DNA of 64,000 bases. It comes from Moniliella sp. 'wahieum'. Lineage: Eukaryota. The notes under the pieces were generated by a model that saw only the letters and a list, made by a program, of their open reading frames with translations, was not told the DNA's origin and made no database searches. Below are positions 28,294 to 59,100 of this stretch, piece by piece; positions within the stretch are counted from its first letter, which is position 1, and each line of letters opens with the position of its first letter. The stretch is from positions 124,001 to 188,000 of the forward strand of contig RSEE01000093.1 in NCBI GenBank assembly GCA_003971905.1, written 5' to 3'. A program made the translations under genes and the position numbers.

Positions 28294-29003
28294 GATTTGC
28301 CCGTTCGCTCGCGCCCAACCAACCTCCCGTTCTTTCTCTACTCCTTCAAACCGTCGACCCTCCCAGTTTCACCTACGCTTAGCCGTATCCTCTGATGGTT
28401 GCGACTGGCACCGCCACCCCGCCCTTTGGCTGGGTGGTATGAACCCTAAGTTCGTTTCCTCTGCTCTTTTCACATTCCCATTCCCATTCCTTTTCTGTTC
28501 ATATTGGTCCGATGCCCAGCGGCCAAGAGCGCTGGTCAGCGCGATGGCCGAGGGTGCGGGCAGGACAACGTTTCTGTTGATTTTTGCTTGTCTGGGAACA
28601 AAACCGGGGCGCATGGGGCTACTGCCTGGTCGACCCGTGTGCGCCGCACTTGGACAAAATGAGCATGCTTCTATCACCAAGCGGCGCGGTGTTTGGGGTG
28701 GATGGGGGCCAACACAGGCACACATAGGCTGGCGTGAATGGCCTCGTAGACTGGCGGCTATTCCGATTCGGATTGGATGGGGGCAAATCCGCGCAGGGCT
28801 GTCGCGAATATAGAGGGGCAGCGACACAATGCCGGTCAGTGTAGCTAATAGGAAACAGCGATATTCACGAGGCGGCGGTTGCTCGGTGTGGCTCTGGTTG
28901 CGGCGGCGGTGGGTGGGGCAGATTCAGCCACACTGGCTCCCGTCGTATAAAGCTAAGCTAAGCTCCTGCCGTGGGGCGCCGCGCCCGGTGGGCTGAAGGG
29001 GCG

Positions 29004-32000
29004 CATGCACGCTTTGCCTCGCCTCCTTCCTCGCCCTCTTCATCCCCATCCTCGCCCTGGCCAGACGCCCGCCCCCATCCTCTCTCTCCCGCCCCCACCC
29101 CCATGCCGCCCCAAGCTGCCCCGCCGCGCCGCCATCTCCCCCGACAACACAGTCTCTGGTGCGCGCCGTCGCGTCTCTTCCATCGCATCAGCCAATCCTC
29201 GCCCACACCCCCCACAGCCGCTCCGCCCACCAATCCACCAAAACCCCCCAATCGCCTCGACCCTCCCGCACCCAGCAAGCCCCCAGCCGCCTCACGCAAA
29301 AGCCACGGTGCGCCATCGCTTTCCGTCCGCTGCGCCAGCGCCTGCCCCGGCCGCGGAACCGTCATTGTCACACACCAAGAACCTCGGTACACAGACCCCT
29401 CCAGCGAGCCCTACCGCTTCTCACAGCGCTCGCTCTCACGCGACAAAGGGCACGCCGCCTTTCACCAAAGGCAAATCAACTGCTTCCAGCAATGGGTCCC
29501 TCCATTCGCCGTCTCCGCCAAATCCAAGCAACCACCGCCGTTTTCTGCCGTGCCAACGGCGCCCCACCACCCCGTCTCATGCGCCAAAGCCACTTTCGGC
29601 GGGCCGGTCCCCTCCCCACGTATCTGGCAAGTCGGCATTCAGCCATTCCCCAGCATCTTCTGTGCTACGCCCTGCTGTTCCCCCTTCCTCGCGGCCTCTA
29701 TGCCCCGATGCCAAGATTGGGATTGATTGGTACCAACCCTCTGCTCAAAAGGCTGTTCGCAACGGCGGGATTCCCGCATCGTCGTCTTTTTTGACATCGA
29801 CAATACGCTGTACAGCCGGCGTACAGAACCGATTATTGCGGGGTGTTAAAGGAGCGCGTCCACTCGTATCTTGCCGTCGGCCAACCTTCCAGCGAAGCAG
29901 GTGGCGAACATTCAGAAACGTTATCATCTCGATTATGGCCTCACCATCCGCGATCTCCCTATGGACCTACTCGAGTTTGATGCGCGTTGCGATGCGCCTC
30001 TCCCGCTGGAGGACATCCTCTCTCCGGACCCGCTGATCCAAGATCTACTCGGTAGTCTTGATCGGAGTAAATGCCGAGTGGTAGCGTTGACCAACTCGTA
30101 CAAGTTCCATGCTGCACGAGTGCTCTCCATCTCGGTATCAAGCACTTTTTGAGGCGTGTGTCTTCTGTGACTACACCTCAGAACACTTTGTGTGCAAACC
30201 GGAAGAGGCGTATTACTTGGCTGTAAGTCTTATTGTCCTCTCTGCTCATCATAGTGAAGCTGACACTCGCTCTCGTGCTTACCCCCTCTGCCCCCACAGG
30301 CCATGGACGCCGTAGGAGTGAACGACGCTAGCAAGTGTTTCTTTGTTGATGACTCGATCGACAATGTCCAGGCTGCCAAGAAACTGGGATGGCAGTCCTG
30401 CATCTTGTTCGATGAGCCTCGATTTGATTCAAATGGCCAAGATGCAGATGGCCAAGTGGTCAAAGTCAACGGTGTAAACCCGATGGCTGTCGCGCCCCTC
30501 ACGAACGATAGTACCGGTACCTCAATGATGCCCCTCTTGGCTGGCATGACTGGTCCAGTTGAACGAGGCGGCGATCCAGAACGAGTTTGTCAAGCTGCCC
30601 CATGCCACTCGGATCCGGCTGATTGACGTTCTGTTTGGCGCTTGCACCCAAGCCGAGCTGATTGTCTTGTCGAGGTCTCTGAATGCTCGTGTTCGCAGCT
30701 CGCGAGATGCCATCACGGTCTATCGCAACCAGTGCATTTGCATATTTTTGGGTATCTTGACGTGCCAGACCTGCTGCGCTGCGGCAGGTGTGCACCAAGT
30801 GGGACGGGTGTCACGAACGCCCTCGTTGTGGAAGCGGCAAGCACTTCGTTTGACATGGGGTGACCCCGTACCGATCGTTCCACCCGAGGATGAGAGGGAA
30901 TGGGAAGAGTTGGTCAAGGGGCTGTTTTGGCGGAGCGAAACTGGGCCCAGGGGCTGGCCCAGACGATTGACTTCTTCCATGGCCACACGGGCTATGTGAC
31001 AGCATCAAGATCAAGGGCCGCACCACCCTGTAACGGGCTCCTACGACGAGACGGTACGAGTATGGGATTTGCGCACGGGCAAGTGCACCAAGGTGCTCAA
31101 GGCCAAAGCGATCATCTGTCTCGACTTTTTGCCCGACGACAACATCCTCTGTGCGGATTGTACGACACGGGAAGGTGATGGTCTGGAACATGAAGAATTG
31201 GGAGCTGATTCAGACGCTCAACGGGCACAACAAGGGCATCCGTAACGTGGCACTGAGTAGTGACTATCTCATCAGTTGTGGACAGGACAAGGCATTGTCG
31301 TCTGGGATTGGAAGTCTGGGACAAAGATTGTTCGTCTGGGCCAGCAGAGCAATGTGAGCCTCGGTGTTTCTATCGTTGACGAAACGAAGATTGTCGCTGT
31401 GACGGTGGATGGGGTTATTCGTACCTTCTCCATCCCCAATGCTTGTATGATCCAGCAGTTTGACCTTCACAAGCTTGGTGGTCCATCCACCATGGGGGAA
31501 AGCCATGCTCCAATGGTTTCACTCCAGTTCCAAGACGATCACGGTTGCCTCCAAGCAGACGGTCGTTCACCTCCAATGGCAAGAGCATTTTGTTCCCGTT
31601 GAAGAATACATCCCACCGTCCGAGATTCGCAAGATTGTATCAGCCCGCTCTGCATCCTCCGCAGCCAGTTCCATTCGATCCCGAAAAGATTCGATTCGTT
31701 CCTCTCCCGCGCGCCAAGCAGCATGAGCTCACGTCCTCCCGGTCCCTAGCAGTCTAAGCATTCACCACCCTGCGCCTTCCTCCAGTTCTACCTCATCGGC
31801 TGCAAGCCCTATCCGCTCCCGGAAAGATTCGACACGTTCGATTTCTCGTGCACCAAGCAGCATGAGCCTCGCGTCTTCACGGTCCCCTAGTAGCCTCAGC
31901 ACACACCACCCTGCACCTTCCAACACATCCTCGATCCCTTCATCCCAGGGCAGTTTACGCATTCGCTCTGATTCGACGTCAGCACCACGTCTCGGTGGTA

Positions 32001-33136
32001 GTACCGTAACAGTCACTCCAAGTCGACGCACAAGCATTTCGCGGCCCAACACCGCAAGTCGGCTTCACAGAGTACCCCTCTGCACCTACGTCCGAGCCGC
32101 ATGCGGCGTCTTTCCTCTACATCATCTTTGGGGCGAGGTCGCCGCCGTCGTCAGGGAAAGAAATGCATAACCTCACAAGATCGGCGTCGGAATCGACCTT
32201 TCCCTCTGCACTCAACGCTAACAGCCCTTCAAATCCAGGTTGCGGTTCTCCCTCACTCGGGTGACGTCCCGTCGCACATCGGCTGTACTTCACCGTCACA
32301 AGTTGCAGACCCACACCCTCGCTGCCCCGCACGAGGAAGAAGAGTCGACGGATGACTTTGACAACAGCACTGACAGCTTTTCTGTGGGGCCCACTCCAAT
32401 GTGGCTGTCTGATCAACATCGGCTGTTTCTCAGTCGGAGGAGTCAGTTAATGTGCTGGGGGAGAAACACAGCAGGTGTACACTGGGCCATGCGCTATGCT
32501 GCCAACCTTGGTGCTCCACCCAAAGTGGTCGAAGTTCTTCATTCACCCGACATGGCTACCGGCGCAGTGGATGCAGCCAAGCAGCGCATCGTGTGCAGTA
32601 CGTTTAGTTCCCGCGCCGGTTCCGACCGACGCCTGTATGTGAGCACATACCATACCCGTGACCCCTCACTCGATGAGGAGAGGGACAACACTATACCCAA
32701 TGAAGACGACCCGTCTCTGGCTCCATCTGTGGACTCAGCCCCACCCGCTGATTGGGCCACTGGCAAGTTTGTCCCCATTACAGGGGCTTGGACAGCGCGT
32801 GAAGCCGAGCTGCAAGCACGTTCGCCCGACCCCTAGCCATGGTGGTGACCATGAGAGTATCGTGGTGGGCTGCCACGATGGCACTCTTTACCGTATCGGT
32901 TTTGTCGGCGATTCGTATCGGCCACTTCGACATGAGAAGAGGGCGAGGCTGAGGAAGGAGAGGGTGACTCTGGCCGGCCTCGAAAGATGGAAGGGGCCGA
33001 TTATGTTATTGACGACATTTCCATGTTGAGAGAGACGTGGGGCGGGATCATGCTCCCTCCCGATGCATCCCTCGATCATCACGGTCCCCCCCCTCCTTCA
33101 GCTCAAGATCACTGGGCTCCTCTTGGGCTCAAATAA
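29004..33136 (+). CDS. Apparent fusion protein: Pro/Ser-rich N-terminus + Sdt1-type HAD pyrimidine 5'-nucleotidase + F-box + WD40 repeats
   Basis: HAD motifs FFDIDNTLY (~29787), LTNS, CKP, intron 30223-30299, FVDDS..N..AA..LGW. With no intergenic gap, this is followed by LHIFGYLDVPDLLRC..W..LWK (F-box), ERNW..GHTGYVT, TGSYDETVRVWD, LNGHNKGIR, SCGQDK..VWDW, and C-terminal IVVGCHDGTLY. Confidence 0.75.
31654..31930 (+). repeat. Diverged ~140-bp intragenic tandem duplication (2 copies)
   Basis: Both copies contain tccc.gaaagattcga..cgttc, ccaagcagcatgagc, cggtccc(c)tag and caccaccctgc.ccttcc. They encode SSAAS.IRSRKDS.RS..RAPSSMS..SSRSPSSLS.HHPAPS. Confidence 0.85.
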
Positions 33137-35882: not shown

Positions 35883-37748
35883 ATGGCCGAGTCCGACCTG
35901 GTCCATCCCGTCCCCGCCATGGACGCAGATACTGCAGCACCCCGAAAACGGAGGAGGGTTGATACTGATTCTCGCCTCGCTCCGACGTTGTCTTGGACCA
36001 GTCCGAGCCCCAGTCCGAGCCAGCACCCCCTGAGCTGGAAGGGGAAGGACATCTCACTCCCCAAGACGCACCTGCATTGACCCGGCTTCGTCGTGCTCAG
36101 GCGGTAGATCTGCATGATCCACTAAAGCCATTTCTTCTTCGGTCCCAGGGCCTTCCATCGGGCTTGCTCAACCTCTCCGTGCCCAGATGAGCCAAGGCGC
36201 CCCTCTTGTCTCTGAGGATGGGCACGCACAACTCATTTCGGCCCCGACACGAGCCGGCTGGAGAAGATGGGGATCAGCGTTTGTTTGCAGTACAAGCCAG
36301 TGTGGTTCGCATGCTCAAGGACACTAGTACTGGCCTTTACCCTAGCCCGCCCCAAGAGACTTCTCGTGGCTAGCCCCACAGGAAGTGGCAAAACGTTGGC
36401 CTATGCTATTCCGCTTGTGGACGCCTTGAGCCAACGCATCATTCCTCGTCTAAGGGCGATCATTGTACTTCCAACTAAGGACTTGGTCGCCCAAGTGGCC
36501 CAAGTACTCAGCCAGGTGCCGGTGATGCACTGAAGATTCAGGTCGCCGGCCATCAGCAGCGTCGGCATGACAAGTCCAACGTCGAAGAGGCAAATTGGCT
36601 CGACGAAACTGATCCTTTCCTCCCCCGTACCTTGTCACGCATTCAAAGTGACACTGATATTTTGGTTGGCACCCCGCTTCTCGTATTGGAGGCCATTCGA
36701 GCCCGTGCCGAAGCAGACCCTTCATGCAGTCCCCTGCAACACCTTCGCTTCCTGATCCTTGACGAGGCGGATCGAATTTTGGGCGACTCGGGTGCATCAT
36801 CCATGCACCACTGGATGACACCCTTGGTTGAAATGCTCGAACCTCCTGCCTTGGACGTGGTACCAGACGTCTCTCTTCCCCTGACCGGTTCGATGCCGGC
36901 AATGGCACCGGCCTGGTTGGAGCAGCGCAATGGTCTCTCGCCATTCGGATGATAAGGCTGGGCCCGATGCCAGTGTATCGTCATTTGCTTCCCGTTCTTC
37001 TTCTTGCTGCCAAAAGCTGCTCTTCTCCGCCACTTTGACTCGAGACCCAGCTCGTGTGGCGGCTCTCCGGCTTCGCAACCCCATGTATCTCTCCATCCGC
37101 CCTGACGGTGCCGTGGTGGAAGATGAGACGACAACCAGATGCGTTTGCGATTCCTGATACGTTGCGGGAAGCCTACGTTCCCACAACGGGAGGTGACAAA
37201 CCTTTGGTGCTTTATTCGTTGCTCACCGGCCTCATCCCTCGGAATGGTCAACGTCTCTCCGCAACGCTGTGCTTTACCAAATCCGTCGAGTCGGCAGCTC
37301 GACTGGCTCAGTTGTTGCAATTAATCGACGAACAGACGCGGGCGGAACAACCATTGCAAGTGGCCCATTTGACTGCCAGCATACCTGCTGCTCAACGCAA
37401 AGCGCTTCTTACCTCATTTGAAGCTGGGAAGGTGGACGTGCTGGTTTGCTCCGACGTGTTGGCGCGTGGATTGGACTTGCCGAACACGAAGCAAGTAGTT
37501 TCGTACGATGCACCGGTCGACTTGCGGAAGTATGTTCATCGGATTGGTCGCACAGCACGCGCAGGGCGAGAGGGGAAAGCGTACACATTGCTGGAGCCGC
37601 AGGAGGTGTACCCATTCCGTCGCATGCGTAGTGCCGCACCCCGATCAACCGACGTGGCTCACATTCGCGTCCCCGAGGCCCAATTGAGCCCGTGCGCGAC
37701 GCGTACGATGACGCATTGGCTCAATTGGGCGAGCGCTATGGAGCTTGA
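35883..37748 (+). CDS. DBP6: DEAD-box RNA helicase Dbp6/DDX51
   Basis: SPTGSGKTLAYAIP; RLRAIIVLPTKDLVAQV; LDEADRIL; QKLLFSATLTRDP; LCFTKSVESAARL; VCSDVLARGLD; YVHRIGRTARAGREG. Confidence 0.92.
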
Positions 37749-38442
37749 AGCTGTAATGGAAGTCTCTGTGTCGCCCTGTTTTGTCTTTCGATATCTGTCC
37801 CGTCAGGTCCCAAAACTGTAGTTGCGGAGGGAGATGAGGCCTGAGGCTGAGGCTGAGGCCTGAGGGAAAATCAAAGAGTTATTGAGCCGATTGGGTTTTG
37901 ATGACAAAATGTGTTGTGCCTGAAGACAAGCGTTGAGATCATTGAGAACGTTGCACGTTGAGGTTTGAGAAGACACTCAGGATGTTCGAATGTGCATGGT
38001 ACTGATACTAGTAACAAAGTCATCGTTGTTTGTATTCTTGAGTCTGCCCCATTGCCTTCATCTTTCGCTTTCTCTATTGCCGACTTCCCCGCTTTCATGT
38101 CCCTTCCTCTTCCCCCTTTTCTCTCCACAAGGAGTTAGTTCTTCTTCCCGTCCTCACCTCTGTTTTACAAACTCACTGTGGGTAAAACATATCTACTAAT
38201 ACTTGATGCTTACGAAGGCGACGAGAGGGATGCGGCAAGAACGCCAAGTAGCAGGGACGCACACTCGATGGCTGTTCTTTCCTTCTGGTCATGGCCACCA
38301 TGACGATACGGACGAGGTACTGTGTTATCAATACTGCCAACAAAACAAGATGCTTTTAGCACTACACTGTACCAAACTTTCTCAATAATGACTAGTTGTA
38401 GAGATGGATTCTCAGATCCCACTCTCATACTGTAATCATCAA

Positions 38443-53279: not shown

Positions 53280-54030
53280 CTCTACCCCCCTTCCTTTTCT
53301 CTTTGGTTCTTGTATATCCACCCTATCTTTATGTGTTCAATGTAGATACACATTGTTCCCCTCTTCATCGCCACTGTACTCACACCCGCTGTTGCACTCT
53401 CATCCTTGCTCTGGGAACCGGCGAGGAACCGTGCCTGTGCTCGTAGGTCGCCGGTGATCGATATGATTATGGTCACTCCCACTCCCCACTTGATCGCTTT
53501 TCCCTGTGACATGTGAGGTGTGGTGAGGTGTGTAACATGCGAGGCCTCATGAGGTCAGGCCCCGGTCAGGCTCCGGCCCTCAGGGGCCATCTGATTGCGG
53601 CCAGTTGGCCACCGCGCATCAATCTGAGGCTGAGATGACAGTAGCTTGACGGTGTGCCAACAAAAGTTTCAACGTCACAAGTGCAGCGAACCACCTTGAG
53701 GGATGCGTTGAGCATGCCCGGATGACCGGCTGGGTCTGCTCATCCACGCCGGGATCGCTCAAGGCGATGTGTGATGTTGTTGCTCAGGAGCGGGCGACAA
53801 GCGAAAGGACGCCAACGGGGGCTGTCGACGGAAGAGGGACACGGACAATGGACAAGCGATGGACCCGCGATTGGGGCGCCGAACGGTGGGCGCGGCAGAG
53901 GGGCTGTGCTGCTGCCCCTGGCGGGGCTAGGGTTGTGCTCGCGCGCTGGGCGCTGGCTCCACTTCCAGTATACGACGGACAGCCGATCGATCATGATCGG
54001 CTCTGCTCTGCCACCGCCATCGCCACCGCC

Positions 54031-55940
54031 ATGGACACCGACGAGCAGCTGTATCCCATTGCCGTGCTCATTGACGAGCTCAAGAGTGAGGACCTGGCGC
54101 TGCGCCTCAACGCCATCCAGCATATCGGCACTATTGCCCTCGCTCTTGGCCCCAAGCGCACCCGCGACGAGCTGCTCCCCTTTCTCCAAGAGAGTCTCGA
54201 TGACGAAGATCCTGTTCTCCTCGCCCTAGCCGAGGAACTAAGCGTGCCTTTTGTCGACTACATTGGCGGTGCCGAGCATGCCCACCTGCTCTTCCCCATC
54301 CTCGAAAGCCTAGCTGGTGTGGAAGATGCGCCTGTGCGCGAAAGAGCGGCCGAGTCAATGGCGCAGCTGGTCCGCATTCTCAATCTGGAGCAGCTCGAGC
54401 ACTTCTACCTCCCCTTGGTCCTCAACCTCGCATCGAACGACTGGCTTGCCTCGCGCACCACTTCCACTGCCCTCATCCCCCCGGCATACCCGCTCCTAGG
54501 CCCGGAAGGACAGGCCCAGTTGCGCAAAGCGTTTGAGAAACTTTGCAACGACGACACGCCCATGGTGCGCCGTGCTGCGTCCCGTGACTTGATTGTACGC
54601 ATCTCCTCCTTGGCCTTTTTGCTTGTTTTTTCCTCCTCTTGTTCTGGGAAACTCGAGCTTTCCCCAGGACCCTCCTCGCTGCCGGCGTGACCCGAGGTGT
54701 GAGCTGACTGGTGCCACTTCGTTAGGGCCTGACCAAGGTAATGAACAAGCAAGAGGTTCTAACCGAAGCACTTCCGCTTTGCCGTCGCTTACTGCGCGAC
54801 GACCAGGACAGTGTCCGGTTGTTGACTCCAGAAAATGTCGTGGCTATCGCCGAGGCTCTCCCGAAAGAGGACGCCACGGCAGAACTCTTGCCCTCGGTTC
54901 GCGCCCTGGTGAGCGACAAGAGTTGGCGTGTGCGCTACGTGGCGGCAGACCAGCTGGTCAAGCTGAGCAAAGCCATGGTACCAGAGATGGTCCATACCGA
55001 ACTGGTGCAAGCGTTTGTGCGTTTGTTGCAGGACAGTGAGGCCGAAGTGCGCAACTCGGCTACGACTCAAATTCCGGGGATGGTGGAACTGTTGGAGCCA
55101 AGGATGGTGCTGGCTCGGATTGTGCCTCTGGTGCACGAGCTGGCGGGGGACGCTTCGGCGCCGTTGCGTACCACGCTGGCTCTCCAGGTCGCCGCGTTGG
55201 CCCCCAAGTTGGGCAAGGAAGGGACGATCGAGCACTTGTTGCCCGTCTTTCTTGCGCTGCTCAAGGACGATGACGCGCAAGTTCGGCTCAACGTCATTTC
55301 CAAATTGGAAGAGGTGAACGAGGTGATCGGGGTGGAGCTCTTGTCCCAATCTCTCTTGCCGGCGATTGTGGAGCTGGCAGAGGACAAGCAGTGGCGTGTG
55401 CGCCAGACGATCATCGAGTACATCCCTCTCCTCGCCAAGCAACTGGGCATGGCCTTTTTTGACGACCAGCTCGCCGCGCTCTGCATGAGCTGGCTCGCGG
55501 ACGCTGTCTTTTCCGTTCGGGAAGCTGCGACGATCAACCTGTGCAGACTGACGGAGGTGTTTGGGGTGCCTTGGTCCCAACGTACGATCCTGCCTGAAGT
55601 TATTAAGCTGGCGCAGCACCCGAACTACCTCTCCCGCCTCACCACCCTCTTTGCACTGTCGGCCATGGCAGAGGCGCTGGACAAAGCCACTCTGGCAGAA
55701 ACTGTCCTACCCACCGTGATGCAGCTGGCACACGACCCTATCCCCAACATCCGGTTCAATGTGGCCCAAACGCTTCAGCGCCTCGCTCTCCTTCTCCTTT
55801 CCGAGCCCGACCCGCAAGCAGAGGCAGTCAAACGGTTGGTCCCGACGCTGACGACGCTTAAGGACGACAAGGATGCAGACGTGCGTTTCTTTGCCCAAAG
55901 GGCCCTCGAGGCTTTGCCGGGTACGGTACTGGAAGGGTGA
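54031..55940 (+). CDS. TPD3: Protein phosphatase 2A scaffold (A/PR65) subunit, HEAT repeats
   Basis: LYPIAVLIDELKSED..RLNAI..IALALG..RTRDELLPFL; DDTPMVRRAA; intron 54595-54725; DKSWRVRY; VRLNVISKLE; LAEDKQWRVR; DPIPNIRFNVA; D.DVRFFA. Confidence 0.98.
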
Positions 55941-56120
55941 CAATGTCAAGGTAGATTGCAATTGCTTGGTACAAATGCGAATGTAGGGGAATGATGCGGG
56001 TCTGGTAGAGGGTAGAGGGGGAGAGGGACAGATGAGATGATGATGAGATGAGATGAGATGCAACGAAAAGAGGATTGGGATAATGACAGGAGGCAAAAAA
56101 AGAGCGGAGTAGAGCAGAAA

Positions 56121-59100
56121 TTAGCTTAAACATCCGGACCAAGCACGTCGAGACCAACTGCGGATCCCGAGCTTCAAGCGCTTGCCAGCCCCTTCCGCCC
56201 GTCCAACCACGGCGGCCCACAAAGAAACGGTGGGTGGCAACATGACGTGCCGGCGGACGCAAACTCGAGTCGAGTGCGAGGCATTGACGAATCAGATCGG
56301 CCACATCGCGCAGAGCACCCCCCCCGTCTGGTGCTGTATGCTGGCTCGGCACAGCTTCCAGTGCCACGCGTTCGCGCAGGGTGCACGCGGCTCGAGTACC
56401 GTCCTCGAGCGCCTGAAGCGCCTCCTTTCCGTTCCAAAACGGGCATTCCCCGCAAATCAGAACGTATAACACCACCCCCAACGCCCAAACATCTTGCGCC
56501 GGGCCTTCGTACCTCTCGCTCCGAAGAATTTCCGGCGCGGCAAAATCCAACGTTCCGGAAAAGGTGTCAAAGCGTTTGCGTGGCAAGCGGGGAACGTGCG
56601 CGGCGGAGCCAAAGTCGATCAGTTGGGCATGGCCCGTAGGTGTGAGAATAACGTTTTCGTCCTTGATATCACGATGGACCATGCCCTGGGCATGAAGGAA
56701 GGCCAAGGCAGCCGCCACCTGGCCACCGATCCCACGCACCTGGTTGACACTCAAGCCCGTGGCCGACGCCTCGACAAAATCAAACACATCCTGGCCTTGA
56801 CCAAACCGGTGCATAACCAAGTAATAAAACTCGGCATCTTCAAAAAAGTCGAGCATGCGCACAATGCCTGGGTGGTGCGTAGGGCCGGGTCCGTCCTGAG
56901 CTGGCCGGGGCCGAGCAAAGGCAGAAGCAGGCGTCTCTTGGCGTTTGTCCGTTGGTTGGAGGTGAGGCAGAAGTACCTCTGGGGCCCAAGGGGGAAATTG
57001 GGTGGGGGGATGATAGTCAATCCGACGCAGCTGCTCCATCACATGAATCTCGGTCGGAATGGTCCCCAAGACACGGTGCCGGCGCCAACAATCCGCCAAG
57101 ATGCGGCTTTTGACAATCGACTTGATCACCACTGTCTCCCCTATAACGGGTGTGCCCTCTTGCGTCTTGGGGCGTTCCTCACTGCCGCACGGCTCTCGCA
57201 GCCGCGCAAGGTTGACCACCCCATACGCACCCCGGCCAATTTCTTGAAGCACCTCAAAGTCCCGGATCTTGCGCTTTTCCCCATTGGGAAGAGGCGAGTA
57301 GGGGATTGTAGGTCCATCCACTGCGGCCGGAGTAGCTGGGGGACACGGCTTGGCCGAGGACTCCTCCTCTACCTTAGATAGACCACGAGCCTTCGACAGA
57401 CACACAGGTCGGTGGTGCCCGGCCGGAGGAGATAATGGCAGAGGCAAAGCACAAGAAGCAGAAGGGCTTTGCAATGCGAGGAATCGGCTGAGTTCACTAG
57501 TTGTGGGGGTGCGTAGGACCATACCGCCCTCTGCGCACCGCTTGGCCCGGGTCGGAGGAGACGACACGGGGGAGAGTATCGGGTCAGCACATTCGGGGGG
57601 CAGCACGCCCAGGGTATTGGTCGGATCTTCAGCAACAGCTTGCTGCAGGCGAGCCAGCAGACGGTCAATGTTGAACGTATCCGACGCCTCGCCAAGAGTC
57701 TCACTGGGGCGGGGGATGGGGTGTCGGACGGGGTGGATAGGGAGGAGGTTCGGTGGTCGGCCAGGAGCTCCCCAGGCTTGGCACAACATGCCCCCATGGG
57801 GAGGCTGGGTTGCTCCCCAATAGCGAAGAGGGGGAGTCGGGGTCCAATTCAAGAGGGCAGGGGCGAGGCGTCGTAGCCAATTCGGGCGGGGTCCCGAGCT
57901 GGAGGGTAGGATGCCCTGCTGCGACGAGGACCTGGTACGCTCCATTCTCTGCCAAAGGGTCTGAGTTAGGAAGCGCGCGCTGTGCCGGCGCCGAGGAAGG
58001 ACCAGTGTCGGGTCAGCGGAGGAAGTGGAACGGATTGCATCTAGAGCAGGTGAGAAAAGCCAGATTAGCGTGCCAGATCACAAAAAGTCCTCACTGTCAT
58101 GAGGAACGCACCCTGAAGAAACTGGCGTGAAGAGCTTGGCGCTGTAACCCGGGCCGCACTGGGCTGGATTGAAGGGGCTATGGGAAGTTCTGGTGAAAGG
58201 CCGAGGGAGACGGAGGGCTGAGCAGAGGATAGAGCTTGCCTTGTTCCCGTAGGGCAGACTGAGGGAGAGAAGGATCGCGGCCCATGGAACGAAAGGGTGC
58301 ACACGCAGGCGAAGGGGCGGGAGTCGCAGGCGGTAAGGGTGGGGGAGAGCGGGGGCAGCGCAAGGGAGGGTGGAGAGGGGGGTGCAATCCGATTGAGCGC
58401 CGGCAAAGGAGATGGGCTCGGGGCTGGAACGGGCAGGTCTTGCGAGCGTCGACTATTGGGCACAGCAGTGGATTTGGGAGTCGCATTCAAACTTGGATTG
58501 GGTGTGTCCTGTCCCACATCGTGAGAAAAGCTGGGCCCCAGGGGGGGCTGGCCTGGTGGGCGCGGGGTGGTGAAAGGGCGGACGGAGCGGGCTGTTCAAG
58601 CGTGTCCCTCGATCTGGGCGGGGGGTCGAGAGAAGTGAGGGTGCGAGGGGACGGCAGCGGCGGGTAGAGAGGCGGGGAGGAGATGTCGACGTTGCCGTGG
58701 ATGGTGCGTGGGGTGCCAATGCTCGCCACTCGTCCGAGCAGGGTGGAGGGAGTGGTGGTGCGGATGCGGGGATGATGGCGGGCAAGATGTCGCTGGAGCG
58801 GCCGAAGCTGCGGACCGAGTAGGCGCTGCTGCTGCGGCTCGAGCGCGCCAGCGACGAGGGTCGGGCACATGGGGCGGGGACGCGGGTGCGGGGTGGAGGG
58901 GGCGACGGACCAAGGCGAGGGCGGGGCGGAGTAGACGATGTCAGGGTCGCGCCGGCGAGGGGGCGCAGTGGGGGTGCCGGCGCTGGCAGGCCGGTGTTTG
59001 CTGGCGGCGATGGGGCTGCGGGTGGGCAGGCGGTGGGGGCTGTGCCGAGGGAGGCGGTGCGGGCGGGGTGGGAGGGGCGGCGCTCGGGAAAGGCGGGGGG

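Follow-up and report, generated by a model that had tools for sequence, protein, structure and literature searches.

A stretch of 64,000 nucleotides from Moniliella sp. 'wahieum' (assembly GCA_003971905.1, contig RSEE01000093.1, positions 124,001 to 188,000 of the forward strand; called the window below) carries on its plus strand, up to 33136, a gene that joins an Sdt1-type 5'-nucleotidase of the HAD (haloacid dehalogenase) type to an F-box and WD40 repeats. A sequence-only reading of this locus had proposed that a complete nucleotidase domain is followed end to end by the F-box/WD40 part. That a single polypeptide contains both is strongly supported by uninterrupted relatives, but the proposed order has to be revised, as the tail of the HAD domain comes after the propeller. 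All four catalytic motifs do lie upstream of the junction between the two halves; the domain is not complete there, however, and its last strand and helix are encoded at 33002–33064. Because this C-terminal element follows the WD40 propeller, the architecture is, as judged from sequence comparison and structural models, a domain insertion into a loop of the HAD fold and not a head-to-tail fusion.

Organization of the gene

The gene probably extends as a single unit with one mapped intron (30226–30299) from one of three candidate ATG start codons (29005, 29492 or 29579) to 33136. All of its parts lie on the plus strand. The region is GC-rich and eukaryotic, and the interval is tiled by stop-to-stop open reading frames (ORFs) in the three plus frames. 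The start at 29005 was the choice of the sequence-only reading; the N-terminus of the closest relative of this part, P0001, matches the window only from about 29567 and not from 29004. Upstream of the HAD core, at 28957–29794, the sequence is C-rich and proline-rich and all three plus frames are open for 250–360 codons; therefore, the start codon cannot be read from ORF length there.

The low-complexity N-terminal extension (29567–29786), to which residues 4–93 of P0001 align with two frameshifts, precedes the nucleotidase. The corresponding N-termini of fused relatives comprise 100–160 amino acids, are rich in Ser, Thr and Pro, and are predicted by AlphaFold2 to be disordered (predicted local distance difference test, pLDDT, 32–38). 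Exon 1 of the HAD core (29787–30225) encodes motif I, the helical cap and motifs II and III, as identified by these motifs and by a profile of stand-alone Sdt1-like proteins, and contains four frameshifts (29838, 29871, 30129 and 30146). The intron (GTAAGT...CAG, 74 nt) is apparent from the sequence; P0001, which was found with a HAD piece (65% identity) and represents the matching upstream ORF, enters an intron at the same codon position, and the stand-alone enzyme P0105 aligns over 30226–30299 with a gap. The core is continued at 30300–30410 with motif IV and the strand KKLGWQSCILF (30378–30410), which match positions 163–209 of the stand-alone profile (E = 5.6e-16).

The first junction is formed by a poorly conserved linker (30411–30558), which holds a frame change at about 30553 and is in frame and open in P0002 and six other relatives. 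It leads into a conserved helical segment (NEAAIQNEFVKLPHATRIRLIDVLFGACTQAELIVLSRSLNARV...; 30559–30717) that is kept in P0002 and other fused relatives, and from there into the F-box (...VHLHIFGYLDVPDLLRC.QVCTKWD.VSRTPSLWKRQA; 30718–30845), matched by PF12937 below its cut-off, more clearly recognized in its counterpart in P0002, and interrupted by three frameshifts (30718, 30783 and 30806). The HAD frame beginning at 30300 stays open until a TGA at 30624–30626, while the frame with NEAAIQNEFVKLP (NEAAIQNEF)...LIVLSRSL opens at 30550, overlaps the former by 77 nt and has no ATG between its opening and the helical segment.

A linker helix and the first WD40 blades follow at 30846–31600, according to PF00400, the structural model of P0037 and Foldseek; landmarks of the repeats are GHTGYVT (30981), GSYDETVRVWD (31036), GHNKGIRNVA (31223) and IVVWDWKSG (31294). 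The propeller region is then interrupted by a low-complexity insertion rich in Ser, Thr and Pro (31601–32524; residues 692–845 of P0037, pLDDT <50), before the C-terminal blades (32525–32924) with the family signatures ...RIVCSTFSSRAGSDRRLYVSTYH... and ...VVGCHDGTLYRIGFVGDSYRP, equivalent to the model strands 861–914 and 984–1007 of P0037. The second junction (32925–33001) is an acidic, poorly conserved linker with residues 1023–1041 of P0037 as its equivalent (pLDDT <50). The displaced strand-helix element of the HAD domain (YVIDDISMLRETWGGIMLPPD; 33002–33064) was assigned by hhalign, conservation and AlphaFold2. The gene ends in a conserved extension (33065–33136; ...DHxG...LGLK, with LGLK at 33122–33133) and the stop codon TAA (33134–33136). 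The extension motif PEDAPxDHPGRxK...LGLK (33065–33133) is common to P0004, P0006, P0009, P0017, P0018, P0023, P0024, P0028, P0038 and P0055, and is absent from P0037 and five others, whose sequences stop directly behind ...VWxxIF. The extension could not be linked to a known family or function.

The nucleotidase part

Sequence comparison places the enzyme part firmly in the Sdt1/Ifn1 family. Motif I (FFDIDNTLY) is located at 29787–29813, motif II (ALTNS) at 30084–30098, motif III (CKPE) at 30193–30204 and motif IV (FFVDDS) at 30339–30356. Owing to frameshifts, the window nucleotidase cannot be scored as one protein on the family model TIGR01993; each of its four pieces is matched by a profile that represents 113 stand-alone Sdt1-like proteins (E = 3e-27, 6e-16, 3e-9 and 8e-8), and no Pfam match was obtained with these short pieces. 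The relatives P0037 and P0028 reach 175.3 and 166.3 bits on TIGR01993, against a cut-off of 142.9. Motifs I–IV are retained in every fused sequence that covers them, with the exceptions of motif IV in P0002 and of motif III in P0128, which reads SKPD where CKP is expected. Among 46 sequences, D110, D112, T211, K247, D272 and D273 (P0037 numbering) show no variation or a conservation of at least 90%; residues 106–298 of P0037 match Sdt1 (3onn) both by sequence (E = 4.7e-47) and by fold (template modelling score 0.77). As the motifs are retained and the relatives score above the TIGR01993 cut-off, the nucleotidase is probably active.

The nearest characterized enzymes are Sdt1/Ssm1 and Phm8 of S. 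cerevisiae and Ifn1 (SPAC24B11.05) of S. pombe, HAD 5'-nucleotidases of TIGR01993 that share the fold and motifs I–IV with the gene described here. They are stand-alone proteins of 230–320 amino acids, whereas the fused proteins have a long disordered N-terminus and an insert of roughly 750–1000 residues before the last strand-helix element. In one study (PMC13059787), the substrates of Sdt1 are given as pyrimidine nucleoside monophosphates and nicotinamide mononucleotide, and Ifn1 is described as monomeric on elution and as preferring GMP and IMP. The same study states that one residue can switch substrate preference within the family and that active Sdt1 or Ifn1 is toxic when over-expressed (PMC13059787). 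Since single residues can change the preference, we do not predict a substrate for the gene.

The displaced C-terminal element

Stand-alone basidiomycete Sdt1-like enzymes (219–307 amino acids, named 'pyrimidine 5-nucleotidase' or 'suppressor of disruption of TFIIS') have the strand that comes next after motif IV, then a variable loop of roughly 10–60 residues and then the terminal motif xVDAxIxxLxELRxVWxxIF, for example GVDATISDLEELRTVWAHLF. This strand-helix motif is common to the stand-alone and the fused proteins. In the latter, however, it is missing after the HAD core and lies far C-terminally, beyond the last propeller blade, as GDAVIKELTELRQVWSSIFKKA in P0037, as GDATITDLLQLRQVWGEIM in P0028, and at the same place in P0023 and P0002. 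The window encodes it about 2.6 kb downstream of the HAD core, behind the WD40 part. All elements of the HAD fold are thus present in the gene but non-contiguous, unlike the contiguous core that defines the family, and roughly 860 residues, including the F-box/WD40 receptor, separate the two parts.

Five comparisons support the tail as the missing element. The profile of 113 stand-alone proteins, searched against the fused and the HAD-less proteins, matched the fused proteins twice, with positions 6–213 in their N-terminal part and with positions of about 209–248 at their C-terminus. The independent E-value (i-E) was 1.9e-4 for the tail of P0037 and ranged from 2.5e-4 to 0.34 for twelve other fragments; weaker values were obtained for P0055 (1.3), P0017 (4.6), P0002 (23) and the window piece (0.88). 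The C-terminal part of the model (about 209–248) matched none of the HAD-less homologues. An hhalign comparison of 15 post-propeller tails with the stand-alone alignment yielded a probability of 96% (E = 4.3e-9) over 41 columns at the C-terminus of the template, versus 0.07% in a control with 17 tails from HAD-less homologues. Likewise, a MAFFT alignment that combined 5 fused with 41 stand-alone proteins placed the stand-alone C-termini on the fused tails, with L1055, W1059 and F1063 of P0037 conserved in at least 90% of the 46 aligned sequences. In the AlphaFold2 model of P0037 (mean pLDDT 73.4), the tail (1041–1066) stands out with a pLDDT of 86–97 between flanking disordered regions and is predicted to form a strand (1047–1049) and a helix (1052–1058). 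The model of the stand-alone enzyme P0105 (pLDDT 93.1) has the same 'EEE--HHHHHHH-HHHE' pattern at 220–236, nineteen residues past the strand 196–200.

The inserted receptor part

The best F-box piece of the window scores 20.7 bits on PF12937 (E = 3.4e-4), below the cut-off of 24.3 bits, with the motif cut by three frameshifts; the F-boxes of P0002 (residues 124–169; 50.6 bits) and of P0026, P0028 and P0037 (42–52 bits) score far higher. One WD40 repeat of the window (31000–31245) passes the PF00400 cut-off with 29.5 versus 27 bits, and the WD40 strands 463–684 in the model of P0037 have pLDDT values above 90. Foldseek matched the receptor part to Fbw7, Cdc4 and beta-TrCP at the top and to WDR5, the best fold matches being 2ovr_B (Fbw7-Skp1; E = 1.5e-17), 3v7d_B (Cdc4-Skp1), 6wnx_D and 1p22_A (beta-TrCP/FBXW11-Skp1). 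Sequence matches to the Fbw7/Cdc4/beta-TrCP class have E-values from 2.5e-35 to 1e-21, and those to beta-TrCP and Fbw7 in the PDB are confined to the WD40 part.

The helical segment ahead of the F-box had been labeled a D-domain in the sequence-only reading. No Pfam family was found at E<=0.01 for window 30559–30717 or for the segments of three relatives (P0104, P0128 and P0183), and the helices of P0037 (329–371) are modeled with a pLDDT of about 61–67. We dropped the label, as the segment resembles a D-domain only in being helical and in its position.

The receptor has the same order of F-box, helical linker and WD40 propeller as Fbw7, Cdc4 and beta-TrCP. It differs from them in being nested in an enzyme, in a propeller broken by two long disordered loops, and in belonging to a separate basidiomycete family with the motifs RFSSRAGxDRR and GCxDGxxY. 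HAD-less homologues of this family ('clade A', for example P0005, P0019, P0021 and P0022) agree with the fused proteins from the pre-F-box segment through the F-box, the WD40 blades and the low-complexity insert to the C-terminal blades. Where the fused proteins have the HAD domain, however, clade A has a predicted N-terminal coiled-coil region, and its members end soon after the last blade with an acidic tail; the HAD strand-helix is found in 0 of 17. F-boxes do occur on one chain with catalytic domains in other proteins, such as the JmjC demethylases KDM2A/B and the F-box helicase Fbh1, which are linear multi-domain proteins. To our knowledge, none of these has the receptor inserted in the catalytic fold and none contains a HAD nucleotidase.

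Relatives with both halves

A full HMMER search with window 32222–32836 retrieved 100 proteins at E<=1e-3. The best match, P0002 (E = 3.4e-44), is a single uninterrupted ORF of 887 residues that starts within HAD exon 2 (KCLFIDNSTANVKAAKELGW) and continues from HAD motif IV via a non-conserved linker to FNEVAIQGEFSKLPHPARIRL..., the F-box, the WD40 repeats and the HAD tail. Six further ORFs or gene models (P0102, P0103, P0104, P0128, P0159 and P0183) lead from the HAD domain into the pre-F-box segment or the F-box and, like P0002, are uninterrupted over the first junction; relatives thus do not always encode the two halves separately. Every clade-B sequence that reaches further upstream than the pre-F-box segment (11 of 11) has the HAD domain there. 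For the second junction, an open frame was seen in P0002, 3 full-length proteins and 13 C-terminal fragments.

The combination of domains was also recovered by a Pfam scan of 26 long homologues. HAD (PF00702) and WD40 domains occur together in four of them, all full-length proteins: P0023 (1329 amino acids), P0026 (994), P0028 (1183) and P0037 (1066), the last three of which also have an F-box match; P0023 has none at E<=0.001. The other homologues mostly contain an F-box and/or WD40 repeats without HAD, and three are without any Pfam family. A word-index search with the junction piece 30300–30626 found no match, which is weak evidence either way. A search of the ESM Atlas with P0028, for which the Atlas holds no model, returned generic F-box/WD40 clusters only (scores <=0.76).

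Among the fused sequences, a taxon is given for P0128 alone, which comes from Ceraceosorus bombacis (Ustilaginomycotina); its NCBI/UniRef entry is entitled 'Haloacid dehalogenase-like hydrolase'. Its gene model appears to keep an unspliced intron inside the HAD domain and stops inside the F-box (...FEKLEVRERKT), and because of this premature end the annotation hides the fused architecture. The sequence-only reading had suspected that the architecture was uncharacterized. Our full-text literature searches indeed found no paper on a HAD nucleotidase joined to an F-box/WD40 protein, but such proteins are already present in public collections as unnamed or mis-modeled predictions. In its main text, a survey of F-box proteins in fungi, Ustilago maydis among them, makes no mention of hydrolase, haloacid or nucleotidase (PMC7991009). 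Both modules are known; as far as these literature searches show, the new element is their nested topology, with a predicted receptor of a cullin-RING ligase inside a metabolic enzyme fold.

A different extension was seen in a 570-amino-acid record from Phenoliferia psychrophenolica (P0195), an Sdt1-like protein that goes on past the HAD domain into PF26113. This could be due to merging of gene models or to a further extension, unrelated to the first, close to the same C-terminal region.

In a tree of the HAD core (124 rows, quick IQ-TREE run), the 11 fused sequences belong to a well-supported group with 35 members, which also contains enzymes of Malassezia and Microbotryomycetes. Their distribution needs two changes on this tree, and a single origin is compatible with its well-supported branches.

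Frameshifts in the window copy

Frameshift-aware protein-to-DNA alignments were made between the window and its two closest relatives. P0002, covering the downstream part (30318–33058), is identical in 566 of 851 residues and requires 25 frameshifts (22 missing and 3 extra bases); P0001, covering the upstream part (29567–30228), is identical in 135 of 216 residues and requires 6. These 31 single-base frameshifts include the frame change between the two halves at about 30553. Once the frame is corrected, the roughly 1,070 aligned codons include no in-frame stop, and with the 77-nt overlap of the two frames this agrees with the earlier view that the HAD frame continues into the helical segment, the F-box and the WD40 repeats.

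Missing bases account for 27 of the 31 frameshifts, as in raw long-read error. In view of this bias, the lack of stops, and a conservation that is high in domains and low in linkers, the frameshifts are most likely assembly errors. The argument that they reflect homopolymer errors was dropped, as 17 of 31 sites lie at homopolymers against a background of 0.50, which is no enrichment.

Alternative explanations

Two neighboring genes could merely seem to be joined if an indel hid the stop codon of the nucleotidase and if the fused database proteins were merged gene models. The assembly is noisy, the other two frames contain stops (about 30474 and 30509), and after one indel a second gene could begin at ATGs around 30524–30547. 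Adjacent genes fail as an explanation, however, because the last secondary-structure elements of the enzyme are encoded after its presumed neighbor: the strand-helix does not precede the junction but follows the WD40 part, and the HAD-less receptor homologues carry no such tail (0 of 17). With P0002 and six relatives uninterrupted across the junction, merging of models is also unnecessary, and we consider this explanation, which the present data already contradict, highly improbable. The more serious alternative is a nested gene or alternative splicing. In this case the receptor unit would reside in a giant intron of the nucleotidase gene, splicing would yield an Sdt1-like enzyme of about 250 amino acids, and the receptor would be made separately or as part of a minor read-through isoform. 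The HAD parts border the insert just as exons border an intron, stand-alone enzymes connect the same two elements by their variable loop of roughly 10–60 residues, and GT and AG dinucleotides occur near both junctions. Yet both linkers are in frame and open in every relative seen (11 sequences for the first; 3 full-length proteins, P0002 and 13 fragments for the second) although they are poorly conserved in sequence and in length; intron sequence would not be expected to behave in this way. Furthermore, the receptor frame lacks an ATG from 30550 to the helical segment, and all 11 clade-B sequences that reach upstream carry the HAD domain. Fungal introns are generally short; the only one mapped here has 74 nt, whereas the giant intron would measure about 2.5 kb. 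We regard a nested gene as unlikely, and leave it a small share of the probability because our reading rests on genomic data.

The window copy itself might be a decaying pseudogene, with its 31 frameshifts and a four-residue deletion in the cap both real and the gene intact in relatives. So many frameshifts within about 3.4 kb, their lack of concentration at homopolymer runs (17 of 31 versus 0.50) and the missing piece of a conserved cap helix would fit such decay. It would, however, also have added stops and substitutions, and the approximately 1,070 aligned codons contain no in-frame stop and retain 66% identity to the relative with the usual pattern of conserved domains and variable linkers. 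The prevalence of missing bases (27 of 31) resembles raw long-read error, other ORFs of the window overlap in different frames as well, and a HEAT-repeat gene is split over two ORFs. A pseudogene thus appears quite unlikely.

A number of observations nevertheless weigh against a functional nucleotidase with an inserted receptor. Searched alone or as a five-sequence profile, the tail did not match yeast Sdt1 in the PDB (the best hits being unrelated, E = 0.16–1.1), the tails alone gave no relevant match in NCBIfam, and the window's own tail is weak by itself on the stand-alone profile (E = 0.88). We infer that the tail packs on the HAD core, and we likewise infer translation over both junctions from ORF continuity and conservation only. 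The closest relative, P0002, has FIDNS instead of FVDDS in motif IV. Five stand-alone Malassezia enzymes adjoin the fused P0028 in the tree (Shimodaira-Hasegawa-like approximate likelihood ratio test, SH-aLRT, 90), a placement that hints at secondary loss of the insert in Malassezia or at long-branch misplacement. The window copy, moreover, needs 31 frameshift corrections and lacks four residues of the conserved cap helix at 29949–29960, including a nearly invariant HH pair: it reads IRDL----PMDLLEF, compared with ...RDLVKNHGIDPLEF in P0001 and RGLVxHHxIDPL in the family. This 12-nt gap differs from the single-base noise elsewhere and could be an assembly error or a real change; because of the frameshifts and the missing cap residues, the window copy could be damaged.

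Possible function of the inserted receptor

The architecture is observed, as are its conservation among relatives and the preserved catalytic motifs; the function of the product would be that of a Skp1-Cul1-F-box (SCF) ubiquitin ligase receptor joined to a nucleotidase. The chain would exit the enzyme after the β-strand that follows motif IV through a disordered linker, and the insert would then form the helical pre-F-box segment, the F-box, the linker helix and a WD40 propeller with two long disordered loops. A second disordered linker would lead the chain back to the enzyme, where its end would contribute the final strand and helix of the HAD fold. By analogy with Fbw7, Cdc4 and beta-TrCP, the F-box might recruit Skp1-Cul1 and the propeller might bind substrates. 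The equivalents of both junctions in P0037 (residues 297–323 and 1023–1041) have pLDDT values below 50, and because both junctions are long flexible linkers, tethering or co-regulation of enzyme and receptor would seem likelier than rigid allostery.

Tethered in this manner, the nucleotidase would have the location, the partners and the SCF-dependent turnover of an F-box protein. Such turnover is plausible because active Sdt1 and Ifn1 are toxic when over-expressed, and it is possible that SCF auto-ubiquitylation sets the level of the nucleotidase. The converse arrangement, a split clamp in which the two HAD parts re-associate around the receptor and their folding or occupancy by nucleotide and Mg2+ sets its geometry, dimerization or stability, would amount to a metabolite-gated E3 receptor; we find it unlikely. 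The coupling of metabolite sensing or phosphodegron editing to ubiquitination, as put forward in the sequence-only reading, is speculation.

The gene offers an example of a large natural domain insertion (roughly 750–1000 residues) into a loop of a small enzyme that is kept across divergent fungi. If the predicted activities hold, it would provide a concrete link between nucleotide or NAD-precursor metabolism and ubiquitin-dependent proteolysis. For annotation it follows that domain-order searches for 'HAD then F-box then WD40' overlook the last HAD element at the very end of the protein.

Neighboring genes

Overlaps between ORFs in different frames recur in other parts of the window. A HEAT-repeat gene of the PP2A-A-like type (53650–55940, plus strand) is split across two ORFs, and a protein kinase gene lies on the opposite strand at 55858–58077, with a Pfam match that begins at profile position 56, and both cases are consistent with this kind of indel noise. 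Among 13 flanking ORFs scanned with Pfam, the only match was a Helicase_C domain (PF00271, E = 1.8e-22) in an ORF at 37039–37821 on the plus strand.

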